Assembly: GCA_013331555.1 (NCBI GenBank)
Contig: DUGB01000134.1
Location: 244-42,027, forward strand
Direction of reading: 5' to 3'
DNA from: Candidatus Woesearchaeota archaeon
GTDB lineage: Archaea; Nanobdellota; Nanobdellia; Woesearchaeales; GW2011-AR9
DNA: 41,784 nucleotides
Shown here: positions 7,081 to 32,466 of the stretch, one piece after another
Layout: the number at the start of each line of letters is the position of its first letter
How positions within the stretch are numbered: the first letter of the stretch is position 1
The notes under the pieces: model-generated
What the model saw: only the letters and a program-made list of their open reading frames with translations
Told to the model about the DNA's origin: nothing
The model's database searches: none
Program-made: the position numbers and the translations under genes

Positions 7081-8007
7081 TTAAAGATTCTGTCCTTTCT
7101 TTGTTCTGTAGTCATTTAGAATTTGATTGTGATCAAAAAGAAGAGCAGGGACTTCATTAGAGTCACAGAGGATAACTTTTTCAGCATCGCTACCAGGTTT
7201 AATCTCTCCATTGCCGATTCCTGCGTAAGCAATAGAAATACGATGTCCCGGCCGAGGATCACGACCAGGTTTTGAATAAACCCCAACCAGGCGAGTTAAT
7301 TGAACTTGCAATCCCGTTTCTTCTTCTGCTTCGCGGACTGCGGCTTGTTCAGCACTTTCTCCCGGATCAATATGTCCTCCAACAAGGGCGTACCCCAGCG
7401 GTTTTTCTTTCCGTTTGATAATGACGAGTTTATCTTGGTATTCAATTACAATGTCTACTGTGGGAATTGGATTGTCAAATGTCAATTTCTGTATCCTCCG
7501 TTGGCGTTCATGGTGTTGTAGGTAAGATGGAATGTGGGGTGGAACAAGAGCACTAATATCAATACCACGAGCATATAATGCGCGAAGCTGTGTGGCATGA
7601 AGTTCAAGGTGTTCTTCAATCGGTATGATTGTGCAATTATCTTTCCCCCGAAAACAATCTGTAGTGTAAGGATTAGAGGAAAATAAAGTAATAGGATTTT
7701 CAGGTATTCCAAAATGTTCAAAGACATGGTCTGCATAGTGTGGTGGATTGTTGAGATCGTCAATCAAACGATACTGGAAAGGGACTTCCATCCGTGCGGC
7801 GGCGTTTTGAACAATGGGTTTTACCATCTCCCAACATTCTGTGCCACTGAATGGATTACGAGCGCTTATCTCATCAGCAACACCAATTCCAACATTAAGG
7901 CGGTCTACTTTTTGTCTTCGCCAATGATGTTCAATGATTTGTTCAAAAAGATCAACATGGTTGTTTCCTACGAGTTGAAATCGGCCGATGACTAATGCTT
8001 CGGTCAT
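7081..8007 (-). CDS. nadM: bifunctional NadM-type nicotinamide/nicotinate mononucleotide adenylyltransferase fused to a Nudix (ADP-ribose pyrophosphatase-like) domain
   Basis: N-terminal VIGRFQLVGNNH (compare archaeal NadM GRFQPFHxGH) and HATQLRAL (ISSTxxR-like). C-terminal canonical Nudix box GGHIDPGESAEQAAVREAEEETGL. 4-nt ATGA overlap with nadE. Confidence 0.75.
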   Translation of the reverse strand: MTEALVIGRFQLVGNNHVDLFEQIIEHHWRRQKVDRLNVGIGVADEISARNPFSGTECWEMVKPIVQNAAARMEVPFQYRLIDDLNNPPHYADHVFEHFGIPENPITLFSSNPYTTDCFRGKDNCTIIPIEEHLELHATQLRALYARGIDISALVPPHIPSYLQHHERQRRIQKLTFDNPIPTVDIVIEYQDKLVIIKRKEKPLGYALVGGHIDPGESAEQAAVREAEEETGLQVQLTRLVGVYSKPGRDPRPGHRISIAYAGIGNGEIKPGSDAEKVILCDSNEVPALLFDHNQILNDYRTKKGQNL

Positions 8008-9809
8008 GATGTTTGACCTTGCTCATAGCGAGCTCTGATTTTATCAAAATCGTATCTTCCGGTAAAATGGTTGATGATTGTAGGTCGTTCACTGAATCCT
8101 CTTGCTCGAGGATCTTTGACTACAACGATTGGAGCACTTTGTCCAATTTTGTAAACACTCCGTCTGGATCTCTCAAAGACCGTCATGACAATACTTTCAA
8201 ATTGTTCTCGTCCATAAAGATCATATATGGTTCTTCCTTGATCATCACAAGGAAAATAGTCTGGTGTTAATGCTCTTGTGTCATATGCATGCATTAATTC
8301 TACTGGCCCTTTCATTCTCCGGGCAATTTCTGAACAGATACCTGATTCAATAAAATAATCTATTGGATCTTCTTTAGCATCAGGTAATTCTGCTGCTGGT
8401 TTTATGGTTCCATCATAAAGCAAATGGGGGATGACTTCTTTCTCTAAGCGCTGGTTTAAGCGCGTAGCAATTTTATATAATTCAAGTTTTGATAGACTTC
8501 CTAGTTGCTGGTCAACACCAATACTGCCAATATCATGAAAATTGGCCCAGCCTTGGACATTTTCAGTTTCATTACCTGTCGGGCAAATACCACGTCTTGT
8601 TTGACCGTTAGCTGCTGTCAATCCCAAAACACTTCTTCCGACTGCTTGCATCGTTGATCTTTGAAGTGGACTAGGATCATGTCCATACACTTCTCTAAAG
8701 TTTGCAACCATCGCTTCATAAGGACCTTGAATTGGCTCCCAGGTGACATTAACAGCCAACATTTCGGCAAGATGATTTACAAGACCTCTTGAATCAGTAT
8801 TACACTGTGAAGGATTACTGATAAACGCTATTCTTTCTGGTCCTAGAGCGAGATAGGTTAAAACAGCTTCTATGGAGCTATCTAAACCACCACTAAGGTG
8901 GATCTGAGCTTCTTTAATTCCTAAAACGTTGAATAATTCTGTCCGTTCAAAGATCAGTGCATCAATAACTTCATCTTCCCAACAGTTATAGAATTTTGGT
9001 TGAATGGGGTTTGTTGTTGGTTTGTCAACATCAAGTTCAATAATTTGGTAATCTCGAGCAAAACGTTTTAATTCGGCAACAGGAGTTCCTTCACAATCGA
9101 AAGCCAAACTTCCACCATCGTAGATGAGAATATTTTTGATGATATCTCCAACACCAGCAGCGTTGACTGACACAACAGGTATTCTTTTCTCTTTAGCGTG
9201 TCCACCAAATATGCTATATCTTCTTGGTTGTTTATCAGTATAAAAATAAGAATAATTAAGTCCGAAGGCAATTTCTGCTCCTTGAGCTACTCCTTCCGCA
9301 ATAAGATCTCGGTCATGATCTTGTGTCCACCAATCTTCACAAATGGCAACTTGGATTTTTCTTATTTGCCCATCAATTTTTACTTCGATGACTCCAGCTT
9401 CTTGTCCGGGGGTAAAATATTTCACATCTTCATGATGATCATCATTGGCAAGAAGAATTTTATCATAGATATGAATTATTCCTTTTCCGCCTTGAATTAT
9501 CGCAGCGGAATTAGTGATGTCAGGGCGGCCATTTTTTTTCGTTCCTTTAACATCTACGAAGCCAATAATGGCAACCATTCCTTCCGGAACTTCAGGAACA
9601 ATAATTTCTTCGAGAAATTGCTTATTATATCGTACAAAACTAGGAATCTCAAAAGAGCCGCCGCAGCAATAACCGGTAAGAGCTGTTTCGGGACTGACAA
9701 ATACGTGGGCTTTATCATCCTTTGCCCGGCGTAAATCTTCAATGAGCTGAGCGACGTTACCTTCTAAGTCACCACTTATGGGTTTTGTTTGGGAAATTGC
9801 TATTTTCAT
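8004..9809 (-). CDS. nadE: glutamine-dependent NAD+ synthetase (CN-hydrolase glutaminase domain + NAD synthetase domain)
   Basis: N-terminal nitrilase-like domain with VSPETALTGY (Glu) and VAICEDWW (Cys). C-terminal ATP-pyrophosphatase P-loop SGGLDSS. The 601-aa length fits the two-domain NadE. Confidence 0.85.
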   Translation of the reverse strand: MKIAISQTKPISGDLEGNVAQLIEDLRRAKDDKAHVFVSPETALTGYCCGGSFEIPSFVRYNKQFLEEIIVPEVPEGMVAIIGFVDVKGTKKNGRPDITNSAAIIQGGKGIIHIYDKILLANDDHHEDVKYFTPGQEAGVIEVKIDGQIRKIQVAICEDWWTQDHDRDLIAEGVAQGAEIAFGLNYSYFYTDKQPRRYSIFGGHAKEKRIPVVSVNAAGVGDIIKNILIYDGGSLAFDCEGTPVAELKRFARDYQIIELDVDKPTTNPIQPKFYNCWEDEVIDALIFERTELFNVLGIKEAQIHLSGGLDSSIEAVLTYLALGPERIAFISNPSQCNTDSRGLVNHLAEMLAVNVTWEPIQGPYEAMVANFREVYGHDPSPLQRSTMQAVGRSVLGLTAANGQTRRGICPTGNETENVQGWANFHDIGSIGVDQQLGSLSKLELYKIATRLNQRLEKEVIPHLLYDGTIKPAAELPDAKEDPIDYFIESGICSEIARRMKGPVELMHAYDTRALTPDYFPCDDQGRTIYDLYGREQFESIVMTVFERSRRSVYKIGQSAPIVVVKDPRARGFSERPTIINHFTGRYDFDKIRARYEQGQTS

Positions 9810-9838
9810 ATTTTATTGTCTTTTTTACACTTAATACT

Positions 9839-9866
9839 AAGTGTAGTTTACACACTAGTATTTAAA
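9839..9866 (-). promoter_or_regulatory. nadE-nadM promoter: TATA box (minus strand TTTAAATA) abutting an AGTGT-N7-ACACT palindrome (candidate NrtR operator)
   Basis: Plus strand AAGTGT AGTTTAC ACACTA G TATTTAAA (9839..9866), about 50 nt upstream of the nadE ATG (9809). The architecture is identical to 15345..15372. It overlaps a second perfect palindrome, TACACTTA-ATAC-TAAGTGTA, at 9826..9845. Confidence 0.6.
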
Positions 9867-9878
9867 GTTTATGGAAAA

Positions 9879-10877
9879 TTAAAGCTGTGAGCTCAAAAAA
9901 TGCTCAAATTCATGTGCAATCATAGCTAGGTATTCTTTTCCTTCCACTTTTTCGATCATAAACGGAGGTAATGTTTCTATTCCATATCTCCCCGCAGCAA
10001 TCCCTGTACAAATTGAGGCTAAGGAATCAACATCTCCACCCATATATATTGAGACACGCAACGCTTCCATCGTGCTTCGAGCGTGTTTTAGAATATATAA
10101 TGCGCAACCTCCGGTGAGCATTGCATCAGAAGGCAGGCCATTAATCCCAGGCATATTGACGATTGGCTGCGGTCCGCATAAAATTTTATAATCTTCTTTT
10201 TTGAGTTTCTCGGGGGCAGGTAACGTATCTATGACATCAAGTAATTTTTCTGTTTCACAGTCAATGTTTCTGATAAATTGTTTACAATAAGATATTATTT
10301 TCTGTGGATTTCCATCGTGAAGAAGCAGATACTGCGCTGCCCGAGCGACTATGATACTGGCAGCTCTTGCTTTTGGATGGGGATGTGTTGCATCAGCATT
10401 GATAATTGCATAGGTATCAATCAACTCTTCTTGGACATATCCTAAAGGAATTGCTCGCATTGGTGGTGCATTTCCCGGAGATTGATTTTCTTGCTGGGAG
10501 CTTCTTATTTCTTCAATAGTTTTTTCTCCCGTGTATACTTTTTTCATTGCACCATGACCTTGCCGGCCATATCCTTTTCTTTCCTTGTCGCTTTCATATT
10601 CTTGAATCCAAAACTGCACTAATAAATCAGGAGTAAATACTTTTTGAGAACGTAATGCTTTGATGATTCCGATGGTCATCTCCGTGTCATCGGTATAATT
10701 TCCTACTATGTAATTTTCAGCATATTTTCCTTTTCGCGCAGTGATATACTCTGTAAAATCAATATGTTCACGAATCCATTCTCTGCTTTGAAATTCAATA
10801 CCAGCTCCAAAAGCATCGCCAATAGCGATTCCGAATAAGACATTAACAAAATTCATTTTGACTATTGCCTCGAGCAT
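9879..10877 (-). CDS. ADP-ribosylglycohydrolase family protein (ARH/DraG-like)
   Basis: Family motifs GIAIGDAFGAGIEF, NYTDDTEMT and C-terminal MGGDVDSLASI (metal-binding acidic residues). The start lies 5 nt after the stop of the upstream NAD-kinase-like gene. Confidence 0.8.
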   Translation of the reverse strand: MLEAIVKMNFVNVLFGIAIGDAFGAGIEFQSREWIREHIDFTEYITARKGKYAENYIVGNYTDDTEMTIGIIKALRSQKVFTPDLLVQFWIQEYESDKERKGYGRQGHGAMKKVYTGEKTIEEIRSSQQENQSPGNAPPMRAIPLGYVQEELIDTYAIINADATHPHPKARAASIIVARAAQYLLLHDGNPQKIISYCKQFIRNIDCETEKLLDVIDTLPAPEKLKKEDYKILCGPQPIVNMPGINGLPSDAMLTGGCALYILKHARSTMEALRVSIYMGGDVDSLASICTGIAAGRYGIETLPPFMIEKVEGKEYLAMIAHEFEHFLSSQL

Positions 10878-10882
10878 GGTTT

Positions 10883-11796
10883 TTAATCATTTCGCACTCG
10901 GTAGACTTTTCGTTCCGCAGGTTTTATCACTACTTTTCTTCCTGCAGCGAATTCAACATAATCCTGTTCAATCCCATCACTGAAAATTACTCCTTCTTCA
11001 GGCATATTTGAGGTAATCATTAATGGCCTCGCAACTGAAACGGTGCCCGTAACAATTTCTGTTCCAGTTGCTTTTGAAGGAAAAGGCTCACGAACAGCAA
11101 ATTTGAGACAATCTGTATCGCGGGCAAATGATATTTCTCCTCTTTTTCCAGCAGCGAGAGCATATGCTCCGGTAATAATAGACGTGTACCAACCTGTTGA
11201 TCCTGATCCTGTGCTTACAATTATTCCACTAGAAGATTGCCGCTCACTTTTTCCTGCAAATTCAATTTCATATCGTGCTGAGATATGTGTTCTTCGTCCA
11301 ATAAAAAATCATTTAAAGCGTACAGCTCCTCTCCATTTTCCAACACTGCCTGCGCTAAAGTTAGTTTTTCACAAGTATACTTTCCTGCTACCGTTTCTTG
11401 TAACTTTCTGGCAAAGCCATCTGGATAACACGTAGTAAAAACATCATCAAATCGTTCTCGATCTGGATTCACCATTATTACTGGTTGCTCTCCAACATAT
11501 TTGGCCGTATTGACAAATAATCCCGGATCTCCTACAACAACAATTACATCTTTATCCCCTACTTGAAAAGTGGCAAGGTGTTCTTTATTCACTTCCTGAA
11601 ATCTCATTCCACTAGGGACAGCAGACTTGACTTGATTTATTCCTGCAGTATACGCTTGATGCGCTTGCTGGTAAAAGTCAAAATGTTGTCCTCGCGATTC
11701 CAAGAAAAACTTAACCTGAGAAGTTGTGCCGTGTCTGGCAATCAACCCCTCAAGCGCTGTTCTTTTTGTAACCAAAACAATTTTTTCTAAAGTCAT
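10883..11796 (-). CDS. NAD kinase-like protein (COG3199/AcoX-like), reading frame interrupted: needs a -1 shift at T_TTT_TTA (11302..11308)
   Basis: ORF 11221..11796 encodes the N-terminal half (VVVGDPGLF = GGDG-like; ALNDFLL) and then stops. The -1 frame continues ...IGRRTHISARYEIEFAGKSERQSSSGIIVSTGSGSTGWYTSI...VREPFPS...GVIFSDGIEQDYVEF... to a stop at 10883. This includes the hallmark STG-GSTGW motif of the NAD kinase fold. Joined length is about 304 aa. Confidence 0.7.
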
Positions 11797-11811
11797 TTTT
11801 CGTTATGCTCC

Positions 11812-12669
11812 CTAGCGCAATCCTGCCAAGATTTCCGGAGTGATAGTTAGAGTCTCAATCCGCGCGGCATTTCTACCGAGTTCATACAACGCATGGGCAC
11901 GTAATACTTCTGCTGACATGCCATCGTACACGGCAAGTTCTAAGCGTCTTGCATCAGCTCTGATCTTTGCTTCATCCATGTTGTTTCTTCCTTGGAGTTC
12001 AACCAATTGTGCTCGCTGTTCTTCAAGAGCAATACTGTTTGCAAGTTCATTCTCTTTGATTGTTCTTTCTTGTTCAACTGCTCGAGCTCTTCGTTTGTAC
12101 TCTGCATCTGCTGCTTTTTCTAACAATCCTTCTCGATATTCTGCTCCTAATGCTTTAGCAATTTGCGGCGGCGGAACAATTGCAGAGAAATACAGCATTG
12201 TCACTTCTAATCCCAACCCTTTAATCGCTGTCGAATTTTGCACCTCTGCAGACACTTCTGCGGATAATCGATCTGCCATTACCAATAATGGTTCTAACTT
12301 TGTGCTTTGTGTAATTCTCCGTGAAGTTCCTCGTATTCTCTGCACCACATGTTCTGGTAATTTTTGATTGTCATCTTTCAAGTACTGTCTTGTTACCGGA
12401 TTGATGGCGAAATTATAGGCGGCGAGAATTTTCTCTGGGTCAGTTATTTTATACAAGAAACCTCCTTGTAAAGAAACTTCTTGTTTATCTTCACTGGACT
12501 CCGTAAAAGAAAATGGCTGCTCAACAATTGCTGTCCCGGTCAATTCAATACTTGTTCGATGGGGTAAATAAAACCCAGCAATTCCTAATCCAGCGTCAAC
12601 ACTTTTTCCATTAACGACAAATCGGGCGTATTCGGTTGGTGCTGCTTTGAAATATCCTACTAGTTTCAT
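11812..12669 (-). CDS. SPFH/band-7 (prohibitin/flotillin-like) domain protein
   Basis: 285 aa. The N-terminal beta-rich region followed by a long Ala/Glu/Arg-rich helix (AADAEYKRRARAVEQERTIKENELANSIALEEQRAQLVELQ) is typical of SPFH proteins. Tightly packed in the NAD operon: 2 nt from pncA, 15 nt from the NADK-like gene. Confidence 0.6.
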   Translation of the reverse strand: MKLVGYFKAAPTEYARFVVNGKSVDAGLGIAGFYLPHRTSIELTGTAIVEQPFSFTESSEDKQEVSLQGGFLYKITDPEKILAAYNFAINPVTRQYLKDDNQKLPEHVVQRIRGTSRRITQSTKLEPLLVMADRLSAEVSAEVQNSTAIKGLGLEVTMLYFSAIVPPPQIAKALGAEYREGLLEKAADAEYKRRARAVEQERTIKENELANSIALEEQRAQLVELQGRNNMDEAKIRADARRLELAVYDGMSAEVLRAHALYELGRNAARIETLTITPEILAGLR

Positions 12670-12671
12670 CT

Positions 12672-13319
12672 TTATTCCCTCCGTATATATTTTTTAATGT
12701 CTGAAGTTCTGGTTAGAATTGCTCCTTCTGCTTCCCATCTCTTCAATACGTCTTCTTCCGGAAGATTTGGTAATCCTTTTATGGCATCAATTGGTACTAC
12801 AACATCGTATCCTCTTTCCAGAAGTCCTCGTACGGCAAAGTCAACACAAACGTTTGTTGCCACTCCATAAACTACATACTGACAATCACCCAATTCACTC
12901 ACAACACGATCAGTATGTCTATTTCCCGCAAATACATCAAAAGCATCTTTATACAGGACGATGTTACGTGCTTCGCGTAATCTGCTGCTATCGACATCTT
13001 TCGCTTTCCAATCAATACAATACGTATATAGCGCAGCTTGTGGTTTTGTTGCGGGAACAAATTCAACACCCGGTGTTCCCTGCAAGCAATGTGGTGGAAA
13101 AGTGTTCCTGAAATCCGGCGTATCTGATAATTCTGTGGAATCACAGGTATGATAATCGGCAGTATTCACAACAACAATTCCTTCTTGATCTGCAAGTTGG
13201 GTTAGAGATGTTAGATTAGGTTCAATTGCCTCTGCCCCGGCAACATATAATGCACCCTCTCTTCGCATAAAGTCGTGCTGTGTATCTACATTCCAAAATC
13301 TTGTCTTCATGGTATTCAT
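12672..13319 (-). CDS. pncA: nicotinamidase (isochorismatase-fold cysteine hydrolase)
   Basis: WNVDTQHDF (catalytic Asp region), FPPHCLQGTPG (metal-binding His, typical PncA WPxHCvqgt.G) and nucleophile Cys in GVATNVCVDFAV. Adjacent to pncB. Confidence 0.8.
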   Translation of the reverse strand: MNTMKTRFWNVDTQHDFMRREGALYVAGAEAIEPNLTSLTQLADQEGIVVVNTADYHTCDSTELSDTPDFRNTFPPHCLQGTPGVEFVPATKPQAALYTYCIDWKAKDVDSSRLREARNIVLYKDAFDVFAGNRHTDRVVSELGDCQYVVYGVATNVCVDFAVRGLLERGYDVVVPIDAIKGLPNLPEEDVLKRWEAEGAILTRTSDIKKYIRRE

Positions 13320-13351
13320 CCTCCTAAATTGTATTTTTTACACTAAATTTT

Positions 13352-14809
13352 TCATGAAAAAATGGTACGAGTGGCAAATCCATAATCCTCCCGAATCATA
13401 TCTTGTGCTTGCTGTACTCCTTCTGAAACAATAACTTTGTACTGCGTTGCATCTCTCAATTTTGCTAATTGCTCTTTTCTTCGTTCAGAAATTTCAGCGA
13501 TGGTCGGAAAATCATAGACTTGTTCTCCTTTGATGATGATAGGAACAAGTAATCCTTCTGCAGTGTCTCCTTCATTCAGGTATTTGCTGATATCCTCTCC
13601 TTCAAATGCAATGACGTCTCGTTTGTAAAATCCATCTGTGCCTGTTATTCTGTATACTTGTTTTATTCCAGGTAGAGTTGATTTTTCTCTGCTTTCGGAC
13701 AGTTTTCCCCTGAGAATTAATTCTTCTTTGTCATCGTAAAAGGCAGCAAGTTTGTACACTCCTTCCACTGGTTTTGGTGGGTTGACAACAAAAGTTCCTA
13801 ATAAATATTTGTCAATGTCTGCTTCTTCTCTTTCTAATCTCGCAATTTTTCCAGCCGTGAGGTCATCTGAGGCTATCAATGTATATCTTTCTCGTCCATA
13901 TCCTCTGTCTTTCATTTGCTGGTGAATCCAGTGTGCTTGCTGGAGAAGATTGCCACTATCAATACGGAATGCACAATGCTCCAAATTCTCTTCTTCGACA
14001 ATGCTCAATGCAGTCTCAAACGCTTTTTGTAGGTTATAGGTATCTAATAGGAAACACACTTTGTCTCTCAACGTGTTGGTTTGCGCCTTAAATGCTGAAT
14101 ATTCATCAGGATGCAGCATGACATACGAATGCCCATGTGTTCCTCCTACTTTTTCCTGATATTCCATGCCAAAAGCAACATTGGATGAAGCTGTGAAACC
14201 ACCAATTCTCGCGGCGCGCGAATTAAATAAAGCACTCTGTGGACTGCCGGCCCGTCTGCTTCCTCCTTCCAATATAATTTTGTTTGTAACTTCAGCAATA
14301 TCATTGGCAGTAGATGCAACATTAGTTTGGGGATTGATTGTGTTGAGAATCACACTTTCAAAAACCTGCGCTTCTTCAAAACGTTCATGAACTCTCAATT
14401 GATGTTCCTGTGCAAAGAAGATTGTGCCTTCCGGCATTCCATAGACATCTCCTGTAAAACGGAGTTGTTCTACCCAATCTAAAAATTCAGGATCAGTAAT
14501 GCCCTGAGCTTCTTGTAAATATGTTTTTAATTCTGTATTCCCTCTTGCTTCCAGAAAATATGCCGCTATTTGCTCTAGCCCAGCATTAATTAGAAAATCA
14601 CGCTTGACTCGTTCATCGTATTTTACGCCTTCTCGTTCGAATTCACCAACAACTTTATTTGCCGGCATTCTTCGTACAACGAGATCAAAAATCGCTTGTC
14701 TACCTGCAATTTTTTCTTGTTGATTAGCATGAGCCATGGAATATTCATAATAATCTCCTACAGCAACTGCTAAATCTGTAGTAAATTCAAGCGGGTTAGG
14801 ATTTCTCAT
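13352..14809 (-). CDS. pncB: nicotinate phosphoribosyltransferase (NAPRTase family, long form)
   Basis: 485 aa. Family-like motifs GDYYEYSMAHA (TDxYxxtM), EGGSRRAGSPQSA, GGFTASSNVAFG, GGTHGHSYVM, LLDTYN, FRIDSGN and STLPGIKQVYR. The pairing with PncA favours NaPRT over NamPRT. Confidence 0.7.
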   Translation of the reverse strand: MRNPNPLEFTTDLAVAVGDYYEYSMAHANQQEKIAGRQAIFDLVVRRMPANKVVGEFEREGVKYDERVKRDFLINAGLEQIAAYFLEARGNTELKTYLQEAQGITDPEFLDWVEQLRFTGDVYGMPEGTIFFAQEHQLRVHERFEEAQVFESVILNTINPQTNVASTANDIAEVTNKIILEGGSRRAGSPQSALFNSRAARIGGFTASSNVAFGMEYQEKVGGTHGHSYVMLHPDEYSAFKAQTNTLRDKVCFLLDTYNLQKAFETALSIVEEENLEHCAFRIDSGNLLQQAHWIHQQMKDRGYGRERYTLIASDDLTAGKIARLEREEADIDKYLLGTFVVNPPKPVEGVYKLAAFYDDKEELILRGKLSESREKSTLPGIKQVYRITGTDGFYKRDVIAFEGEDISKYLNEGDTAEGLLVPIIIKGEQVYDFPTIAEISERRKEQLAKLRDATQYKVIVSEGVQQAQDMIREDYGFATRTIFS

Positions 14810-15243
14810 TGGAGTCTTAACTCCATGAATGGTAAGCTGTCTAAGCTTTCTGCATCTTCAGCCTTTATTGGCAACTGTCTTGTTTTTGCTACATCAACAT
14901 CTATCCAAGAAGCATCTTTCATTTTTGAAGCAAAATAACTTCCAATGCGTGCTGAGAAGTATTGAACAAGGTGTCCAGTTCGTTCATCTATTTCTGTTGC
15001 TATTGGTTGATACCGTGCTGCTGGTAAAGATAATCCATGCTGTCCATACATTAAGAGGGCTACATCTTCCGCTGTTGGTTTGCACTCTCTGAGGGTGGGA
15101 AGAATTACTCTTCCTGCTTGTTGAGAAAGAAGCTCTCTTGTTTCCACATTTGTGATGAGGACTCGAGCTTCTTGCCAACTGTCTAACTTAGGAGTGTATT
15201 GTTCTACTTCTGTTCTTAGTACGGCGGCATACATGTTTTTCAC
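14806..15243 (-). CDS. hypothetical protein, first gene of the NAD operon
   Basis: 145-aa ORF. 4-nt overlap with pncB suggests translational coupling. No motif recognised. Confidence 0.4.
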   Translation of the reverse strand: MKNMYAAVLRTEVEQYTPKLDSWQEARVLITNVETRELLSQQAGRVILPTLRECKPTAEDVALLMYGQHGLSLPAARYQPIATEIDERTGHLVQYFSARIGSYFASKMKDASWIDVDVAKTRQLPIKAEDAESLDSLPFMELRLQ

Positions 15244-15344
15244 ATTTTAATATTGTTTTGATTACACTAACATTTTGATAAAAATAACCCGTGAGTGTAT
15301 TCTGGTTTGATAATTTATCAAATTGATTATTTTTCGCATGTTTA

Positions 15345-15372
15345 AAGTGTATTATTGACACTTATATTTAAA
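15345..15372 (-). promoter_or_regulatory. promoter of the pncB-pncA-...-ARH operon: TATA box abutting an AGTGT-N7-ACACT palindrome (candidate NrtR operator)
   Basis: Plus strand AAGTGT ATTATTG ACACTT A TATTTAAA, with the same spacing as at 9839..9866. Further same-spacing sites occur at 15252..15268 (ATTGT-N7-ACACT) and 15384..15400 (AGTAT-N7-ACACT). Confidence 0.55.
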
Positions 15373-15439
15373 TGTTGTGAAATAGTATTAAAATTACACT
15401 AAGTAAGTGTACTATACCACTGACTCAGAAAAAATGTAG

Positions 15440-16102
15440 TTATCCTTTTCTCAGAAATGAATACAACGCCGCAGGACGATGAGGTCCTTCTTGCTTTTTC
15501 TTCTTCAAATCTTTAAGAATTTGTAATTCTGCAATTTTTTTGCGAAAATTACGTTTGTCAAGTTTTTTACCAAGAATAATCTCATATGCTTTCTGTAATT
15601 CGGTGAGTGTAAATTCATCCGGCATAAGTTGGAAAGCAAAATCTGTTTCCCAAATTTTTCCACGAAGCCGGTTTACGGCATAGTCAATTATTTCTTTATG
15701 ATCAAAAGCAAGTTTTGGTAAATCATAGACGGAGTACCAAGTGAATAAATTTCCTTGCTGAAAATCTATTTTAGATGATTCAACTAAACCGTAATAGACA
15801 ATAGAGATTGTACGAATACGAGTATCACGTTCAAGATTGCTTCCAAAGGTGTATAATTGTTCGAGAAAAACTCCACTGGAATTGATACCCCCTTTCTGTT
15901 TTAAAGCAGTTCGAGCAGTGTCCTCGATAGTTTCCTCGTAGCGAACAAATCGTCCGGGAAGAGCAAATTTACCGAAATAAGGCTCATCCTGGCGTTGAAT
16001 AAGACCAACTTTAAGATCATCGTTTTTAATGGTGAAGAGAACAACATCAACGGCAATACCGGGACGTTTAAACTGGAAAATATCACTCTCCTCTTTGGCC
16101 AT
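15440..16102 (-). CDS. nrtR: NrtR-like transcriptional regulator (degenerate Nudix domain + C-terminal winged helix)
   Basis: The Nudix fold has a degenerate box (GRFVRYEETIEDTARTALKQKGG lacks the REuxEE glutamates). The C-terminal ~70 aa are basic and helical (FTLTELQKAYEIILGKKLDKRNFRKKI). Sits directly upstream of the NAD salvage operon, as NrtR genes do in bacteria. Confidence 0.65.
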   Translation of the reverse strand: MAKEESDIFQFKRPGIAVDVVLFTIKNDDLKVGLIQRQDEPYFGKFALPGRFVRYEETIEDTARTALKQKGGINSSGVFLEQLYTFGSNLERDTRIRTISIVYYGLVESSKIDFQQGNLFTWYSVYDLPKLAFDHKEIIDYAVNRLRGKIWETDFAFQLMPDEFTLTELQKAYEIILGKKLDKRNFRKKIAELQILKDLKKKKQEGPHRPAALYSFLRKG

Positions 16103-16145
16103 ACTGTAGTTACTACAATAACAATCTTTATAAAAGTTGTGACCA

Positions 16146-16568
16146 ATGATCTTTAGTGTGGTAACGTGTATTTTTTGTAAGATTGGTACCGGTGAAATAC
16201 CTGCTCATAAAGTCTATGAAGATGACTCTGCTTTGGCCTTTTTAGATATTAAACCCCATGCAGGTGGTCATACTGTCGTTATTCCTAAAAAACACGGCGA
16301 AACGGTTTTTGATCTCTCTCAGGATGACGTACAAAAGTTAATGTTGAGTGTTACAAAAACAATGCAGCGTATTCAATATGTTCTGAATCCAGATGGATTC
16401 AACGTCGGCTGGAACCACAATACTGCGGGTGGACAAGTTGTTCCGCATCTGCATATCCATATCTTTCCACGCTATTTGAATGATAATGGTGGAAGTATGC
16501 ATTCAATCATTACTAATCCTGGAAATGAAAGTGTGGAGAATATTGCAAAACGATTTCAAAAGAAGTGA
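16146..16568 (+). CDS. HIT-family nucleotide hydrolase/transferase (HinT-like)
   Basis: CIFCKI...GEIP, AFLDIKPHAGGHTVVIPKKH and histidine triad VPHLHIHIFPR. Confidence 0.8.
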   Translation: MIFSVVTCIFCKIGTGEIPAHKVYEDDSALAFLDIKPHAGGHTVVIPKKHGETVFDLSQDDVQKLMLSVTKTMQRIQYVLNPDGFNVGWNHNTAGGQVVPHLHIHIFPRYLNDNGGSMHSIITNPGNESVENIAKRFQKK

Positions 16569-17535: not shown

Positions 17536-18243
17536 CTAAATTTTTTTACTATCAAAACTTATTATATCTATTGTATCACTTTGTTTACATTTAAAATTAA
17601 CTGCCTCTTTCTTTGAAGCAAAAATTTTCAAATCATCAGGAATATTATTACTCTGCTTCTTAGTTTTGAAAGCTACTAAAGGGGTATGAACTTCAGACAA
17701 AAAATTGGATAAGAATCTTAAAATGAAATATATTTGTAATTCATATATATCAATATCATATTTTTCTCCAATATCTTTATGTCTTTCAATATCCAAAAAT
17801 AAAACTCTTCTCTTATTAGGAAATTCTATTTGTGTTTTTTTTACCAAATTAAATAAAATCTTAGCAGATTCTTCAAAACTTTCAGGTTCATAAATATTGT
17901 GATAAATGGCAATGGGTTTATCAATTAACATTTCTTTATAGTTTGTATTTTCCTCGAAAATTAGTTCATCAAAGTTTTGATATTTCTTTGTTTCTTCTTT
18001 TGCTTTAGCAACAATTTCCCACCAATAATCTCTCATTTGCCTTATTTTTTTTCTTAATTCTGGATTCCCTCCATAGAGATAGTGGCAATCAGCTGTAAGC
18101 GGAGCTGCATTATCTAACGTGTCAGGTCCATTCTCACTTTCTGGGATTATATGGTGTACTTCAACAAATACTTTATAGCAAATACAACAACGAAAATGTG
18201 ATCTTTTATTAGCCTCAAGTTTTATTCTCTCGGAAAAAGTCAT
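17536..18243 (-). CDS. HNH (His-Me finger) endonuclease domain protein with unknown C-terminal domain
   Basis: RCCICYKVFVEVHHIIPESENGPDTLDNAAPLTADCHYLYGG gives CxxC...HH...N...CH. The remaining ~150 aa have no recognised motif. Extremely AT-rich gene, convergent with tRNA-Ser. Confidence 0.65.
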   Translation of the reverse strand: MTFSERIKLEANKRSHFRCCICYKVFVEVHHIIPESENGPDTLDNAAPLTADCHYLYGGNPELRKKIRQMRDYWWEIVAKAKEETKKYQNFDELIFEENTNYKEMLIDKPIAIYHNIYEPESFEESAKILFNLVKKTQIEFPNKRRVLFLDIERHKDIGEKYDIDIYELQIYFILRFLSNFLSEVHTPLVAFKTKKQSNNIPDDLKIFASKKEAVNFKCKQSDTIDIISFDSKKI

Positions 18244-18443
18244 TAATATTATCAGAATGATTGGTTGTTTATATTTTTTGGTGTTCTTTGGGTTATTCCA
18301 GATATTTTTGTAATGGGTTGAACAGCTACATTCTGCTTACATCATAATTTTGAATTTTAGTGGATATCCTATTAAATCTCTTCTTTAAATCTGATACCGA
18401 AACTAATTTACATTTTTGATAACATCCGTATAGAAGATAAACC

Positions 18444-19430
18444 CTAGTTCTGCAAAATAAACTGCTGAAGTGAAGGAAGATACCAATAAACGTCTCCATC
18501 GGTGAAAGAAACAGTAAATACCTGCATTTCAATAAGTGCAAGAGCGTGAATCTTGACATCACTTTGCAACTCCCGTGATTGTAATTCTTTCATCTGATGA
18601 TCAAAAAGTTCTTTGATCTCCTGCCGTTTTTCTTTATTTTTTTCAATGAGTTCTTCTCCTTTCTTTTTGAGGAGTTTGATTTCATAGTTATATTTGTCGC
18701 GAAGGCTGAATGAAGAGGCGTTCATTGATTTGTCTTGAATTTCTCTGATCTTCGTATTGATCTTTTCTTCCTGCTGTTTCAATTCAGCGTATTGATTTTC
18801 AGCATGACCACGCTGAATTTCAACTAGGTCGTTCATGTCTTGTTCATGTTCTTTTTCAGCAAGAGTAAGATCTTTCTGTAATTCTTTCTGAAGAAATGTA
18901 GTGAACAGAGGAGTAATCTTCTCATCAAAATTAATAGGAGTTTGGCTTTTGAGGAAGGTTGCTTTCATCAAAGATTCAGCAGAGATGACGTTATTGTTAA
19001 GAATTAGCTGCGGTATAACCCAGCGGTATTTATGGTTAGCAGTTGTTATAATCACTTCCGGAAGGACAAAATGTCCTTTTGCTTTGATCTCTTCAATAGT
19101 ATAACGACAGGTTTTATGAAGTTCGGACAGTTTTTCATTGACATCAAGCAGGTCTCTTTTGTTTACGGGAATGCTAAATGAACCGATAGCAGTTATGTCG
19201 GCATACCGTGCGACCATACTGTCAAAAATAAAATTACCGGGCTGAAGATGTTCAATTTTTTCTTTGGCAGCAATAATTGGATCAAAAGTGCAAACTAAAT
19301 TAGAGCGATTATACCATTTCTGGTGGGTTTTGTCAAGTTTGATAGAATATATTTTATTCTTTACTTTGTACTCGAGCTTATGCTCTTCAAAGTATAGTTG
19401 TACATATAATTCGCTACGTTCTGGGTTCAT
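18444..19430 (-). CDS. hypothetical protein with central charged coiled coil, translationally coupled to the SNF2 helicase
   Basis: 328 aa. The start overlaps the SNF2 stop by 17 nt. Central segment LTLAEKEHEQDMNDLVEIQRGHAENQYAELKQQEEKINTKIREIQDK...KKKGEELIEKNKEKRQEIKELFDHQMKELQSRE. No catalytic motif recognised. Confidence 0.45.
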   Translation of the reverse strand: MNPERSELYVQLYFEEHKLEYKVKNKIYSIKLDKTHQKWYNRSNLVCTFDPIIAAKEKIEHLQPGNFIFDSMVARYADITAIGSFSIPVNKRDLLDVNEKLSELHKTCRYTIEEIKAKGHFVLPEVIITTANHKYRWVIPQLILNNNVISAESLMKATFLKSQTPINFDEKITPLFTTFLQKELQKDLTLAEKEHEQDMNDLVEIQRGHAENQYAELKQQEEKINTKIREIQDKSMNASSFSLRDKYNYEIKLLKKKGEELIEKNKEKRQEIKELFDHQMKELQSRELQSDVKIHALALIEMQVFTVSFTDGDVYWYLPSLQQFILQN

Positions 19431-21198
19431 GGATCATTCCACTAAAAATGGTTTCATCAAATTTCTTTATTTCTTCGACTTTTTCTTTTGCTTGAGATAA
19501 ATCTTGGGCAATAATATCATCATTTTTGAGATATGATTCAAAGATTGATTTTTCAATACTGCCTTTCGTGGTAAGTTCGCTGAGAATCATGTCCATCTCT
19601 CCAATAGACACGGTAAACAAATTAATTTTTTCATACAAACGATTAAGGATATAGGCCTCAATAGTGTCTTTGATGGCAATGTTATGAATTTCAACATCCT
19701 GTTTCTGGCCGATACGATGAACACGGCCGATGCGCTGTTCTAGACGCATGGGATTCCAAGGAAGATCAAAGTTGATCAGAATATGGGCAAACTGAAGGTT
19801 TCGACCTTCTGAACCAGCATCGGTGCAGATAAGAACTTGAGCATCACTCTTGAACTGTTGAATGGCTGCTTCTTTTTCTTCCGGGGTCATCACACCGTTG
19901 AAAATGACTGTTTTAAAGCCATTCATTTTTAATTCTAGATCGATTATCTTTTGTGATTGGATGAACGTGGTAAAGATGATGACTTTTTCTTTTTCATTTT
20001 TGAGAAGTTTCGTAAGATAATCTAATTTACGGTCACGAGAAATACGCTGAGCACGCAGGAGGAGGGCTTCCAGAGATGTGACTTTTTTAGGATCATCCAA
20101 TGTTTCCTTGTAGCGTTGCAAGGCATGGATTCCGGCTTGAAGTGAGCTCGTTATCTGACGAGTCAGCATGATCAAAGCGAAAGTAAGAAGTCCTTTTTGA
20201 CGATAGCGAGATGCCATGACGTGAAGTTCTTCTTCACTGAGTGATTCGAGTTCTTCTGTTTCTTCTGTTGAGATATCTTTTTCAATTTTTTTGATTTCCT
20301 CATACTGTTTGCGGACAAAGGCAATGGCTTCAGTGTAGAAATCCATTTCTTCTTTTGAATAATCCAAAAGATGGGTTTTAACGTGACGCTCGGCAAATTT
20401 AATCCCCGTATCACGCCGAAGATTGCGAATCATAATTTTAGAAAGCTTTTCTTGAAGTTCGATAGAATTCTTAACTTTCAAACCGTCTTTATCTTGAACA
20501 TATTGACTGGTGAATTTCGCTTTCGTTTCTAAAAAACCAGGGTGAAGCAAGTCGAGAAGCGCCCAGAGTTCAAAGATGTTATTCTGAAGCGGTGTAGCGG
20601 TAAGCATCAGACAACGTTCTTTTTCAATGTCTTTGACAAGTTTATAATTTAATGTAGTGCTGTTCTTGAGCTTGTGAGCTTCATCAACAACAATTAAATC
20701 CCATTTTATGCTGGTGAGAACTTTTTTGTGACGTTCTGTCTTGGCAGTGTCAATGGATGCAATAATACGATTTGTTTCTTTGTAGGTTGAAGGATCATCA
20801 GCAATGACAAAGTGTTCATTAAATTTTGAGCGTAATTCTTCCTGCCATTGAAATTTTAAAGTGGCTGGCGTGAGAATGAGAATTTTATCCGCTAATTTTC
20901 GGGCAATGTATTCTTTGATGATGATGCCTGCTTCGATTGTTTTTCCCAGTCCGACTTCATCAGCAAGAAGTGCGCGATGGGAAAAATTGTTAAGGACATG
21001 AAGAGCAGTTCTGGTCTGATGCTCCATAATCTCAATTTTATCAGCGTACGTGCTTCTGGCGATAAGCTCATTGACTGTTTCGACAGAGGCAATTTGTTTG
21101 GCTAACACGGCGAGTTTAAAAACGGTCGGTGAAGCATAGTCTTTTTCTTTGAGAGCATGCTCTAGAAAAGGGATTTTTTTGATATTGAGTGAAACCAT
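19414..21198 (-). CDS. compact SNF2/Rad54-family (RapA/HepA-like) ATPase-helicase
   Basis: Motif I LLADEVGLGKT, II VVDEAHKLKN, III LMLTATPLQNN, V CTDAGSEGRNLQ, VI LEQRIGRVHRIGQ. 594 aa with only a short N-terminal extension. Confidence 0.85.
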   Translation of the reverse strand: MVSLNIKKIPFLEHALKEKDYASPTVFKLAVLAKQIASVETVNELIARSTYADKIEIMEHQTRTALHVLNNFSHRALLADEVGLGKTIEAGIIIKEYIARKLADKILILTPATLKFQWQEELRSKFNEHFVIADDPSTYKETNRIIASIDTAKTERHKKVLTSIKWDLIVVDEAHKLKNSTTLNYKLVKDIEKERCLMLTATPLQNNIFELWALLDLLHPGFLETKAKFTSQYVQDKDGLKVKNSIELQEKLSKIMIRNLRRDTGIKFAERHVKTHLLDYSKEEMDFYTEAIAFVRKQYEEIKKIEKDISTEETEELESLSEEELHVMASRYRQKGLLTFALIMLTRQITSSLQAGIHALQRYKETLDDPKKVTSLEALLLRAQRISRDRKLDYLTKLLKNEKEKVIIFTTFIQSQKIIDLELKMNGFKTVIFNGVMTPEEKEAAIQQFKSDAQVLICTDAGSEGRNLQFAHILINFDLPWNPMRLEQRIGRVHRIGQKQDVEIHNIAIKDTIEAYILNRLYEKINLFTVSIGEMDMILSELTTKGSIEKSIFESYLKNDDIIAQDLSQAKEKVEEIKKFDETIFSGMIHEPRT

Positions 21199-23783: not shown

Positions 23784-24266
23784 TCATGATTCAACAATAA
23801 CTTTCATGGAAACAGTGGTAAAGATGCCGTCAACGATGGTACAAGTCATAGGTTGGGTAAACGTCCATAGGAAAGAGTCTCCAGGTTGAAAGATATGGCT
23901 TTTGACGTTCGCACAGCGCAGGGTTCCAATAATTAATCCTTGTGGATAACGGCTGCCTTGTAAACGTTTGTTTTTCCATTCAACGGCATCGCCAGCTTTA
24001 ATCGTTACTTCTTTTATATCAAAACCGCCGTCAATAAGATTAATGGTATATGTTCTTGTTTTAGGTTCAGAGGGTATGATTTCAACTTCGGGTTCATCCG
24101 CTGGCGGAGAGACAACATCTTCAACAACGGGTGGAACTTGAACTTCTGCTTCAACCGTTGTATTTTCCACGGCAATAGATGGCTGTTCATCGACTGGAGA
24201 GGGGGTACAACCAAGAACCAATACGTTCACAAGAATTATAAACAGGATTTTAGTGATTAGATTCAT
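23784..24266 (-). CDS. secreted lipoprotein with C-terminal beta-sandwich (cupredoxin-like?) domain
   Basis: Signal peptide plus lipobox MNLITKILFIILVNVLVLGC. Pro/Glu/Val-rich linker. C-terminal YTINLIDGGFDIKEVTIKAGDAVEWKNK resembles cupredoxin-like domains. Confidence 0.45.
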   Translation of the reverse strand: MNLITKILFIILVNVLVLGCTPSPVDEQPSIAVENTTVEAEVQVPPVVEDVVSPPADEPEVEIIPSEPKTRTYTINLIDGGFDIKEVTIKAGDAVEWKNKRLQGSRYPQGLIIGTLRCANVKSHIFQPGDSFLWTFTQPMTCTIVDGIFTTVSMKVIVES

Positions 24267-28730: not shown

Positions 28731-29182
28731 GCTTCAACTTTCTTGATGGCACTCATCTCTTTGTATTTGAGACGGATTTTTTTCCCTGTTTTTTCTTCTT
28801 GAAGGATGATTTCTTTGTCTAATGTTTTGACAATATAGGTATTGCCTCTATAGGTGATAAGATCATGTTTAGCAAAATGAGCCTGGCGGAAAAGAACAGT
28901 TAAGCGGTACACATCACGTCCGTCTTTATTTCCATACAATTTAGCAGTAACAAGATACTCCCCGCCGAACTTAGCCTGTAAACGGTGACCGAGATCTCTC
29001 GTAAATGGTCCATCAGCGAGATAAATATCAATACCATTTTTTTCTTCCTCTTCTTTGGTGATATAGATGCCCTTGCGTTCAATTTCGGCGTAGACGAAAT
29101 CAAGAACGAGTTCTGTTGGGTGCCGCAGCTGAAGAATGGCTTCATAGTAGCCGGGATGCTTTCCTTCCATTGTGCGGACCAT
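28727..29182 (-). CDS. short NMD3-family-like protein
   Basis: GYYEAILQLR and DGRDVYRLTVLFR resemble the NMD3 core. At 151 aa it lacks the N-terminal zinc ribbons of full-length NMD3. Confidence 0.4.
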   Translation of the reverse strand: MVRTMEGKHPGYYEAILQLRHPTELVLDFVYAEIERKGIYITKEEEEKNGIDIYLADGPFTRDLGHRLQAKFGGEYLVTAKLYGNKDGRDVYRLTVLFRQAHFAKHDLITYRGNTYIVKTLDKEIILQEEKTGKKIRLKYKEMSAIKKVEA

Positions 29183-30106: not shown

Positions 30107-30212
30107 GCTAAAATAATGATATTTGGAATATATAAACTTTAGCCGGAGTTGACCAGTGCGAGAGTGAACTAAAGAAATAGGATTAATTTTATAAGAACGA
30201 GTTGTTTCGTTA

Positions 30213-32268: not shown

Positions 32269-32466
32269 ATGAAAAAAATAATCTTGGTTTGTTTAGTGTT
32301 GCTTTTTGTGGTCAGCTGTTCTTCACCAGAATTGACAGATCAATCAGCCCCTGCCGAAAGCTTAGGTATAGGAGATACAACTGTGGAAGAATTAGAGGAT
32401 TTACAGATTGACTTAGAAGAGGATGTTTCTTTTGAGGAGGTTAATGATCTTACAATATTGGATTAA
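32269..32466 (+). CDS. small acidic lipoprotein
   Basis: MKKIILVCLVLLFVVSC gives a signal peptide plus lipobox (VVSC). The mature part is highly acidic. Confidence 0.45.
   Translation: MKKIILVCLVLLFVVSCSSPELTDQSAPAESLGIGDTTVEELEDLQIDLEEDVSFEEVNDLTILD

Follow-up and report, generated by a model that had tools for sequence, protein, structure and literature searches.

The closest described counterparts of the locus analysed here are the bacterial NrtR regulons. The published NrtR box is a 21-bp palindrome with a GT-N7-AC core, the bacterial boxes overlap promoters, and the NrtRs act as repressors whose DNA binding is weakened by ADP-ribose (PMC2330246). The NrtR literature that we examined covers bacteria only, as the first-pass annotation had said of the family, and no paper listed by our literature search linked NrtR with DPANN. 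In archaea, repressors such as Archaeoglobus MDR1, Pyrococcus LrpA and Phr, and members of the TrmB family bind downstream of the TATA box, ahead of the start site, and prevent the recruitment of RNA polymerase. Here, a NAD cluster was studied in a 41,784-nt stretch of DNA (the window). Its palindromes are very probably the operators of the NrtR encoded at 15440-16102 in a DPANN archaeal host, working by repression and its relief by ADP-ribose.

The window was scanned for AGTGT-N7-ACACT with at most one mismatch, and dinucleotide shuffles were used as background. Seven matches were found, compared with 1.01 expected, and none of 100 shuffles reached this number. The matches start at 9815, 9840, 13328, 15252, 15346, 15384 and 16347, and the first six are intergenic and located in the NAD cluster. 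With a score of only 6.4 bits and a position within the HIT gene, the match at 16347 is probably due to chance. A PWM trained on sites from other archaeal contigs only, with the window sites excluded, returned seven 21-mers at 15.3-20.3 bits, while the next best site scored 7.5 bits and the shuffles contained a mean of 0.57 matches at ≥10 bits. All seven fall in intergenic DNA of the NAD cluster, although intergenic DNA makes up just 11% of the window. The palindromes in the NAD cluster are real and far from chance. They carry the published 21-bp, GT-N7-AC signature (PMC2330246). The features of the cluster are listed in Table 1.

Table 1. Genes, core promoter elements and NrtR boxes of the NAD cluster (positions in the window).
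Feature	Position	Strand	Remarks
Nudix hydrolase	7081..8007	-	308 aa; 4-nt overlap with nadE stop
nadE, glutamine-dependent NAD synthetase	8004..9809	-	Pfam CN_hydrolase + NAD_synthase
Tandem second NrtR box AGTGTAAAAAAGACAAT	9815..9831	-	ATTGT-N7-ACACT; PWM 18.8 bits
Class-1 NrtR box AGTGTGTAAACTACACT	9840..9856	-	Perfect match; PWM 16.4 bits; 2 nt downstream of nadE TATA
nadE TATA box TTTAAATA	9859..9866	-	Ends 2 nt upstream of class-1 box
ADP-ribosylglycohydrolase	9879..10877	-	Pfam ADP_ribosyl_GH 7.3e-39; last gene upstream of nadE promoter
pncA-like isochorismatase-family nicotinamidase	12672..13319	-	Pfam Isochorismatase 2.8e-21
Class-2 NrtR box AGTGTAAAAAATACAAT	13328..13344	-	Between pncB stop and pncA; PWM 20.3 bits
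pncB, nicotinate phosphoribosyltransferase	13352..14809	-	Pfam NAPRTase_N, NAPRTase_C
First gene of regulated operon	14806..15243	-	145 aa; without family match
Class-2 NrtR box AGTGTAATCAAAACAAT	15252..15268	-	11 nt after T5 run; 8 nt before GTG 15243
Class-1 NrtR box AGTGTCAATAATACACT	15346..15362	-	Perfect match; PWM 19.2 bits; 2 nt downstream of TATA
pncB-operon TATA box TTTAAATA	15365..15372	-	Preceded by BRE-like ACAACA
Upstream NrtR box AGTGTAATTTTAATACT (minus strand)	15384..15400	-	PWM 17.6 bits; upstream of pncB-operon BRE/TATA
nrtR	15440..16102	-	220 aa; Nudix-like sensor domain + NrtR winged-helix DNA-binding domain
Putative autoregulatory NrtR box ATTGTAGTAACTACAGT	16103..16119	-	2 mismatches; PWM 15.3 bits; directly adjoins nrtR ATG
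nrtR TATA box TTTTATAAA	16127..16135	-	7 nt upstream of box 16103-16119, 24 nt upstream of ATG

These results largely bear out the first-pass annotation, which had proposed a genome scan with a PWM built from its own sites and an enrichment check; the scan of the window with the independent PWM confined the strong sites to intergenic DNA of the NAD cluster. The two 28-nt strings quoted there, 9839-9866 (AAGTGTAGTTTACACACTAGTATTTAAA) and 15345-15372 (AAGTGTATTATTGACACTTATATTTAAA), were recovered letter for letter, and its same-spacing variants at 15252, 13328 and 15384 were recovered by the one-mismatch scan. All the boxes that it named were found, but its list lacked two: 9815-9831, and the one beside the nrtR start codon at 16103-16119. 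The everted repeat reported at 9826-9845 is present but arises where the tandem boxes 9815-9831 and 9840-9856 meet, and in that at 15395-15411 the right half-site of box 15384-15400 is joined by an unpaired AGTGT half-site. Moreover, box 15252-15268 had been placed 9 nt upstream of the first ATG, which was wrong: the GTG at 15243 is 8 nt away, and the first in-frame ATG, at 15234, is 17 nt away.

The regulator of the cluster, previously called NrtR-like, is a true member of the NrtR family by its Pfam matches (NrtR_WHD, 1.6e-27; also AraR_C and NUDIX) and its PDB relatives (BtAraR, 5bs6, 4e-37; SoNrtR, 3gz5, 3.9e-27). In addition, NadQ (PDB 7Q91) matches residues 132-217 (6.5e-17). Its Nudix catalytic box is degenerate, with RTALKQ in place of REUXEE. 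The catalytic glutamates are lost across the whole archaeal NrtR clade and kept in the bacterial sister group, and this loss fits a pure sensor role of the archaeal proteins. The archaeal NrtRs form one clan with at most 49.5% identity to bacterial sequences, and the LDKRNFRKK segment of the winged-helix domain is identical in them and in the bacterial group sharing this box.

Gene content and relatives mark the host as a DPANN (Woesearchaeota/Nanoarchaeota-type) archaeon. The window contains genes for NMD3 and DUF460, related contigs contain genes for diphthamide synthase and RtcB/archease, and the nearest NrtR relatives, with 59-76% identity, all come from MAGs labelled as archaeal (Nanoarchaeota/Woesearchaeota). 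Furthermore, BRE/TATA elements stand at leaderless distance throughout the window, and a -35 hexamer precedes the box by 1 nt at 0 archaeal-clade versus 72 bacterial sites. Against this evidence it is very improbable that the contig is bacterial (for example from a CPR/Patescibacteria bin) and that TTTAAATA beside the box is an AT-rich accident or a UP-like element, even though neither rRNA nor tRNA was found in the window, NrtR and many neighbour genes are bacterial in type, and the closest bacterial sequence is a Patescibacteria relative (L009).

The position of the box relative to core promoter elements was compared between 20 archaeal loci (43 boxes) and 149 bacterial loci (197 boxes). TTTAWAWW ends exactly 2 nt upstream of 18 of the 43 archaeal-clade boxes, promoters that are not fully independent because the loci are related (L002 and L082 are identical in sequence), and of none of the 197 bacterial boxes. 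The 18 include 17 of the 19 perfect boxes, the other two being L007 at 2436 and L166 at 6753. TTGACN ends exactly 1 nt upstream of 72 of the 197 bacterial boxes, and in bacteria the same box occupies the 17-bp -35/-10 spacer. The single -35-like match at an archaeal locus (L004) is 3 nt away and on the opposite strand. In the consensus profiles, conservation is confined to the BRE AA, the TATA box and both half-sites; the flanks and the N7 spacer are variable. In most window genes BRE/TATA ends 22-25 nt before the ATG; this leaderless geometry places the box between TATA and +1, and box 15346-15362 spans about -22 to -6 relative to the predicted start site. The first-pass annotation had suggested this location, with a one-nt gap from TTTAAATA to AGTGT; the gap is actually 2 nt, and shrinks to 1 nt only when six nt are assigned to the half-site. 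The comparison of orthologous intergenic regions that it recommended yielded the 2-nt phasing, and its candidate NrtR box in an archaeal promoter is now backed by regulator family, published motif and archaeal-only TATA phasing.

The box at 15384-15400 lies upstream of TATA and could have an activating or cooperative role; similar boxes are found in L165 (6705) and L008 (10703). Archaeal regulators with sites upstream of BRE often activate transcription, and NrtR might act mainly as an activator or dual regulator, with box 15384-15400 recruiting TBP/TFB and the TATA-proximal box only fine-tuning expression. We regard this as decidedly unlikely, since the upstream boxes occur in few loci only, the conserved boxes of highest quality lie between TATA and +1, and bacterial NrtRs are repressors.

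The class-2 boxes have an ACAAT 3' half; a T-run precedes them by 11-12 nt, and a Shine-Dalgarno sequence with a start codon follows closely. In the window they occupy the leader and the pncB-pncA intergenic stretch. Box 13328-13344, the top PWM score of the window, comes 12 nt after the end of a T6 run and is followed by GGAGG and ATG. A T5-T8 run ends 11-12 nt before the box at at least nine sites in 7 of the 20 archaeal-clade loci (the window, L001, L003, L008, L162, L165 and L168), always inside a transcription unit. Oligo-T tracts are known as archaeal termination signals, so class-2 boxes (13328, 15252 and their equivalents) might be roadblocks instead of promoter operators, where NrtR stalls RNA polymerase at oligo-T and an attenuation-like termination adds a second level of control. 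This seems rather unlikely, as together with AT the T-run also resembles a TATA element (TTTTTTTAT) lying about 9 nt ahead of the box, from which the start site would fall inside the box, and T-rich TATA variants serve other window genes, such as TTTTTAAT at 23784-24266.

At nadE, the second box follows the first by 8 nt, and the ATG comes 5 nt further on. Tandem boxes 25 bp apart were also found in L002, and those of bacterial relatives are 22-24 bp apart. Transcripts probably include the class-2 boxes and this second box, and a stem of 5-7 bp is possible in a perfect box. Nevertheless, it is extremely improbable that the palindromes are RNA hairpins in mRNA leaders (riboswitch-like or processing signals) rather than DNA operators: the predicted start site lies downstream of the class-1 boxes, only weak stems were obtained (0 to -6.1 kcal/mol), with no folding at all of class-2 boxes, leader folding gave z = -0.05, no Rfam match was found in the window, the half-sites are invariant without covariation, and bacteria have the same box in the -35/-10 spacer. 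In the adjacent 308-aa Nudix hydrolase, the Nudix domain covers residues 182-286 and the N-terminal half is unannotated; the nadE-Nudix pairing recurs in L165, L168 and the P0030 locus. In related loci, boxes precede pncB, NAMPT, nadE, pncA, Nudix and ARH operons adjoining nrtR.

The nrtR TATA box stands at a leaderless-type distance from the ATG, contains the palindrome TTTATAAA and sits in the 43-bp spacer common to nrtR and the divergent HIT gene. The weaker box at the leaderless nrtR ATG suggests autoregulation, and a box likewise adjoins the nrtR ATG in L002, L004, L005, L008, L083, L162 and L163.

From the computed sites, phasing, conservation and family membership, we infer DNA binding, repression and the effector as follows. 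At the pncB-operon and nadE promoters, a high-affinity box 2 nt past BRE/TATA, filling about -22 to -6, would hold an NrtR dimer downstream of TATA and ahead of the start site. TBP and TFB binding would remain possible, but the bound NrtR would keep RNA polymerase from being recruited or from forming the open complex, and the NAD salvage and NAD synthetase genes would thus be repressed. Free ADP-ribose, which ADP-ribosylglycohydrolase yields, would be supplied by NAD consumption and by this enzyme of the cluster. Its binding to the catalytically dead Nudix domain would then detach NrtR from the DNA, an effect demonstrated for bacterial NrtR.

Most likely, regulator and box were acquired from bacteria, a direction of transfer that we infer from the family's broad bacterial distribution rather than from a rooted tree. 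After the transfer, the promoter element beside the box would have been swapped from TTGACA to TTTAWATA, and the locus is likely a naturally occurring example of a regulon adapted to the promoter of the other domain. Since regulator and operator sequence are common to both domains, promoter wiring can be compared directly across them.

NAD biosynthesis or salvage is also controlled through palindromic operators by NadR (Enterobacteria), NiaR (Bacillus/Clostridium, Thermotogales) and NadQ. NadQ shares the C-terminal winged-helix domain with NrtR, whereas the sensor domains, effectors and operator sequences of all three differ. As with MDR1, LrpA, Phr and TrmB-family repressors, the operator lies directly downstream of TATA, up to +1, and a metabolic operon appears to be under small-molecule control; NrtR, however, belongs to an unrelated protein family and shares its operator with bacteria. 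The bacterial NrtR regulons (Rodionov et al. 2008, PMC2330246), nearest in the Planctomycetes/Verrucomicrobia/Cyanobacteria-type group and with structures for SoNrtR (3GZ5/3GZ6) and BtAraR (5BS6), have the same Nudix plus NrtR winged-helix architecture, the same pncB, pncA, nadE and Nudix targets, tandem boxes, autoregulation (predicted here) and an operator overlapping the core promoter, and the closest relatives have the identical box tTAGTGT-N7-ACACTAa. In contrast to them, the host is archaeal, the NrtRs are without the Nudix catalytic glutamates of the bacterial sister group, and the box is 2 nt from BRE/TATA instead of 1 nt from the -35 hexamer, a phasing by which it would act on TBP/TFB/RNAP and not on the sigma70 holoenzyme.

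The product of nrtR carries a C-terminal winged-helix DNA-binding domain, which was matched over its full length by Pfam NrtR_WHD (PF21906; 1.6e-27, residues 156-216), and, at its N terminus, a domain of Nudix-like type matched by Pfam NUDIX (1.6e-05, residues 19-140). It also aligned over its full length with two structurally characterised family members, BtAraR (5bs6; 4e-37, residues 16-218) and SoNrtR of Shewanella (3gz5/3gz6; 3.9e-27, residues 10-215), and both alignments included the Nudix domain. Every feature tested places the window protein in the NrtR family. Its Nudix box reads G50-x5-E56-x7-R64-T-A-L-K-Q-K-G against the signature GX5EX7REUXEEXGU, with three of three catalytic glutamates replaced, and the protein therefore fits a sensor and not an enzyme. 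Many NrtRs have been described in this way in the NrtR literature. The REUXEE glutamates are gone across the archaeal clade (consensus r.ALKlK, aligned to window residues 50-72), so that the archaeal NrtRs look like pure sensors. The closest bacterial group retains these residues (RREL.EE.G), and its members may still hydrolyse ADP-ribose. The winged-helix segment LDKRNFRKK is identical between the archaeal clade and the bacterial group with the same box.

The first-pass annotation had proposed a shared 28-nt arrangement of TATA box and palindrome at two NAD-operon promoters, and both strings were found exactly as quoted at 9839-9866 and 15345-15372. The repetition of AGTGT-N7-ACACT exceeded chance: with at most one mismatch, the window held 7 matches compared with 1.01 expected, and none of 100 shuffles reached 7. 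Six of these seven matches lay in intergenic DNA of the NAD cluster. A 21-bp weight matrix, trained on sites from other archaeal contigs only with the window sites excluded, scored seven sites at 15.3-20.3 bits (21-mer starts 13326, 15344, 9813, 15250, 15382, 9838, and 16101), the next best among ~41,800 positions reaching 7.5 bits. All seven were intergenic, intergenic DNA being 11% of the window, and shuffled windows gave a mean of 0.57 matches at 10 bits or more. The seven sites precede nadE, the pncB operon, pncA, and nrtR, a placement upstream of clustered NAD genes and over promoter elements that matches other NrtR operators. The consensus TTAGTGT-N7-ACACTAA also fits the published NrtR operator, whose 21 bp form a palindrome around a conserved GT-N7-AC core (PMC2330246), in line with the proposal that these are candidate NrtR boxes. 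All sites of the original list were recovered, and two of the seven, the second nadE box and the weaker nrtR box, were missing from that list. The everted repeats, proposed as a separate element, dissolved into the boxes themselves: 9826-9845 is the junction of the tandem nadE boxes, and 15395-15411 is the right half of the upstream pncB-promoter box plus an orphan half-site. A candidate at 16347-16363 inside the HIT gene scored 6.4 bits only and was treated as chance.

Genes and NrtR boxes of the NAD cluster (window coordinates)
Feature	Position	Strand	Remarks
nrtR	15440-16102	minus	Pfam NUDIX and NrtR_WHD
145-aa ORF	14806-15243	minus	first gene of the pncB operon; no family match
PncB	13352-14809	minus	
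PncA-like isochorismatase	12672-13319	minus	
SPFH protein and 191-aa ORF	within the NAD cluster	minus	
ADP-ribosylglycohydrolase	9879-10877	minus	
NadE	8004-9809	minus	
308-aa Nudix protein	7081-8007	minus	translationally coupled to nadE
HIT-family gene	16146-16568	plus	divergent from nrtR
nrtR-HIT spacer	16103-16145		43 bp
Small leader ORF	15262-15339	minus	25 codons; stop inside box 15252-15268
Class 1 box, pncB-operon promoter	15346-15362		TATA, 2 nt, box
Class 1 box, nadE promoter	9840-9856		TATA, 2 nt, box
Second nadE box	9815-9831		8 nt downstream of the TATA-proximal nadE box and 5 nt upstream of the nadE ATG
Upstream pncB-promoter box	15384-15400		
nrtR box, weaker	16103-16119		directly abuts the nrtR ATG
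Class 2 box	13328-13344		ACAAT 3' half
Class 2 box	15252-15268		ACAAT 3' half

To place these sites in context, 20 archaeal-type nrtR loci (the window, L001-L008, L081-L083, and L161-L168) were compared with 149 bacterial loci. Scanning metagenomes with NrtR contributed just three archaeal-type loci, all others being bacterial, and further loci were obtained from the contigs of individual homologues; one more, the P0030 locus, is known from its genes only, without DNA. Operators before NAD genes clustered with nrtR were found at the 19 other archaeal-clade loci as well. The placement of the operator directly next to a TATA box, noted at first pass, recurred in these orthologous loci: in 18 of 43 archaeal boxes with at most one mismatch, a TTTAWAWW element ended exactly 2 nt upstream of AGTGT. 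The gap was 2 nt in all 18, no other spacing was seen in the archaeal set, and 17 of the 19 perfect archaeal boxes were among them. None of 197 bacterial boxes had such a TATA element, whereas 72 of the 197 had TTGACN ending exactly 1 nt upstream. The archaeal position profile was c..AA..TTTAtATAT.AGTGT-N7-ACACTat.aA, with flanks and spacer unconserved, versus cTTGACaT-aGTGT-N7-ACAC-TAtnat for bacteria, where the 17-bp spacer is taken up exactly by the box, whose last base opens the -10 hexamer. Bacterial NrtR sites have been reported to overlap promoter elements or to sit between promoter and start codon (PMC2330246).

At the pncB-operon promoter of the window and in L003, L006 (twice), L008, L164, L165, and L168, only 5-7 nt separate the box from an ATG downstream. 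After a class 1 box this ATG lies 24-26 nt behind the TATA box, the position expected for a leaderless start, and the box would thus span about -22 to -6. With the 2-nt gap on one side and the predicted leaderless start on the other, the palindrome falls between TATA box and transcription start, as had been suggested. This is the operator position of archaeal promoter-occluding repressors, a mechanistic class and not a protein family, for a start site placed by prediction.

The reading of the contig as bacterial is disfavored by several lines of evidence. Among the genes of the window are one for an NMD3-family protein and one for a DUF460 protein, and on a related contig nrtR has diphthamide synthase and RtcB/archease beside it. 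For the NrtR relatives at 59-90% identity, the source MAGs bear the labels Nanoarchaeota, Woesearchaeota, or Nanoarchaeia, and the best bacterial relatives reach 49.5% identity at most. In a neighbor-joining tree, the 19 archaeal-type NrtRs formed one clan with 149 of 149 bacterial sequences outside. Window-wide promoter geometry argues in the same direction, as in front of most genes a TTTAWAWA-type box, accompanied by an A-rich BRE-like segment, ends 22-25 nt from the ATG (for example upstream of 32463-33491, 36604-38739, 28727-29182, and 23784-24266). This spacing, which is that of leaderless transcripts in archaea, indicates that transcripts are probably mostly leaderless in this genome, and operon-internal genes use GGAGG Shine-Dalgarno sites instead. 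Moreover, 18 boxes of the archaeal set are phased to TATA, whereas the -35 fusion was seen at 72 bacterial boxes. The case for an archaeal host is strong but indirect, since the window contains no tRNA and no rRNA. A few close NrtR relatives are labelled "uncultured Methanosarcinales". The MAGs of L003, L004, L006, and L007 carry the title "uncultured Methanosarcinales archaeon", which is odd beside their closest relatives; on Woesearchaeota-type nrtR loci these titles may be an automatic mislabel.

Some genes of the cluster are less readily assigned. The 145-aa ORF had no relative in Pfam or PDB, the 191-aa ORF had no match in Pfam, and neither had a counterpart in L001-L008 by tblastn. In the 308-aa Nudix protein, the N-terminal half of ~175 aa is unannotated and shows ~25% identity across related archaeal loci; a NadM-like adenylyltransferase was considered for this half and dropped, as it found no sequence support and the PDB match 2qjo (NadM-Nudix) spans the Nudix part only. 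The divergent nrtR/HIT pair also occurs in L003, L005, L008, L161, and the P0030 locus, and in L163, L164, and L168 the HIT gene is near nrtR and not adjacent. The spacer between the two genes holds one palindromic TATA box, TTTATAAA, together with the nrtR operator, and HIT may thus be co-regulated with nrtR. The annotated HIT ATG is only ~10 nt from this TATA box. The NAD cluster is flanked by mobile-element or defence-like genes (17536-21198, 29261-30289, and 38803-39147), namely an HNH endonuclease, an SNF2-family helicase partly similar to DrmD/DpdE, a Bro-N domain protein, and a PemK/MazF toxin. A 342-aa protein at 32463-33491 (minus strand), lying behind a textbook leaderless TATA promoter, consists of two tandem AsnC/Lrp-type units and weakly matches two siroheme decarboxylases, AhbA and AhbB.

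Besides class 1, two other kinds of site were recognized. In the presumed autoregulatory arrangement, a weaker box abuts the nrtR ATG, and 7-16 nt upstream lies a TTTATAAA-type TATA box (the window, L002, L004, L005, L008, L083, L162, and L163); a box abutting the ATG is also present in the bacterial loci L010 and L012. In class 2 boxes the 3' half is asymmetric (ACAAT); a T5-T8 run always precedes them by 11-12 nt, and GGAGG with a start codon usually comes next. They occur in the leader and between operon genes, in the window and, for instance, at L001 5947, L003 10824 and 12322, L008 15408, L162 6791, L165 6823, and L168 7322. One possibility is that these sites serve as secondary promoters in which TTTTTTTAT is the TATA element and the box covers the start site; another is that they are roadblocks immediately behind an oligo-T terminator. 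It seems improbable that they act as ligand-controlled roadblocks at which RNA polymerase terminates at the T-run, that is, as an ADP-ribose-responsive, protein-dependent attenuator; if true, this would be a second control layer without described archaeal precedent. The leaderless ATG behind the class 1 promoter opens an ORF of 20-43 codons in an A/C-rich leader of ~60-110 nt, as in the window and, with equivalent leaders, in L003, L006, L008, L162, L164, and L165. The ORF was rejected as a conserved peptide: the apparent similarity SFFY..IISV..NT is what the conserved DNA of T-run and box yields when translated. An RNA hairpin was likewise disfavored: Rfam gave no match over the whole window, and boxes and leader fold weakly or not at all (leader folding z = -0.05).

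NrtR proteins are expected to be repressors, and their binding in vitro is weakened by ADP-ribose (PMC2330246). Classical archaeal repression is the best-supported model for the window. NrtR bound between TATA and +1 would leave TBP/TFB binding intact and block recruitment of RNA polymerase at the pncB-operon, nadE, and nrtR promoters, and the extra boxes could add cooperativity or a second block. The upstream pncB-promoter box may alternatively have an activator role. ADP-ribose, arising from NAD consumption and from the ADP-ribosylglycohydrolase of the cluster, would release the repressor. The evidence for this effector is circumstantial, namely the degenerate Nudix box and two genes of the putative regulon, one for an ADP-ribosylglycohydrolase and one for a Nudix hydrolase. 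To the computed sites, phasing, conservation, family membership, and regulon content, the repression model adds binding, a sign of regulation, and an effector, which are extrapolated from bacterial NrtR biochemistry and from knowledge of archaeal repressors.

To our knowledge, the NAD biosynthesis regulators NadR, NiaR, NrtR, and NadQ have been described only in bacteria. Our literature search found no paper describing an archaeal NrtR, and none of the top-ranked papers joining NrtR with DPANN, Woesearchaeota, or Nanoarchaeota terms contained NrtR. The NrtR literature treats the family as bacterial, and a 2023 study of Sulfolobus Nudix proteins stated that NrtR is bacterial, such a fusion not being found there. 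Within the literature searched, the regulon reported here is the first predicted NAD-homeostasis regulon of NrtR type, and the first predicted NAD regulon, in Archaea. Bacterial-type regulators are common in archaea, so an archaeal NrtR regulon is unsurprising in principle. Woesearchaeota-type DPANN are thought to be host-dependent for many metabolites, and the predicted regulon would indicate active control of their NAD salvage according to how much NAD is consumed. The main value of the system is a clean, testable case of a regulon refitted across the domain boundary, accessible with a single small soluble protein, a site of 21 bp, a known ligand, and in vitro transcription in heterologous archaeal systems. 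It would illustrate how a bacterial regulon, once transferred, can be fitted to the archaeal, eukaryote-like transcription machinery. Compared with its bacterial counterpart, the archaeal regulon has the same regulator family and the same 21-bp operator, but the host domain and the phased promoter element differ: only the core-promoter element adjacent to the box is swapped, with a -35 element at 1 nt in bacteria against a TATA box at 2 nt in archaea.
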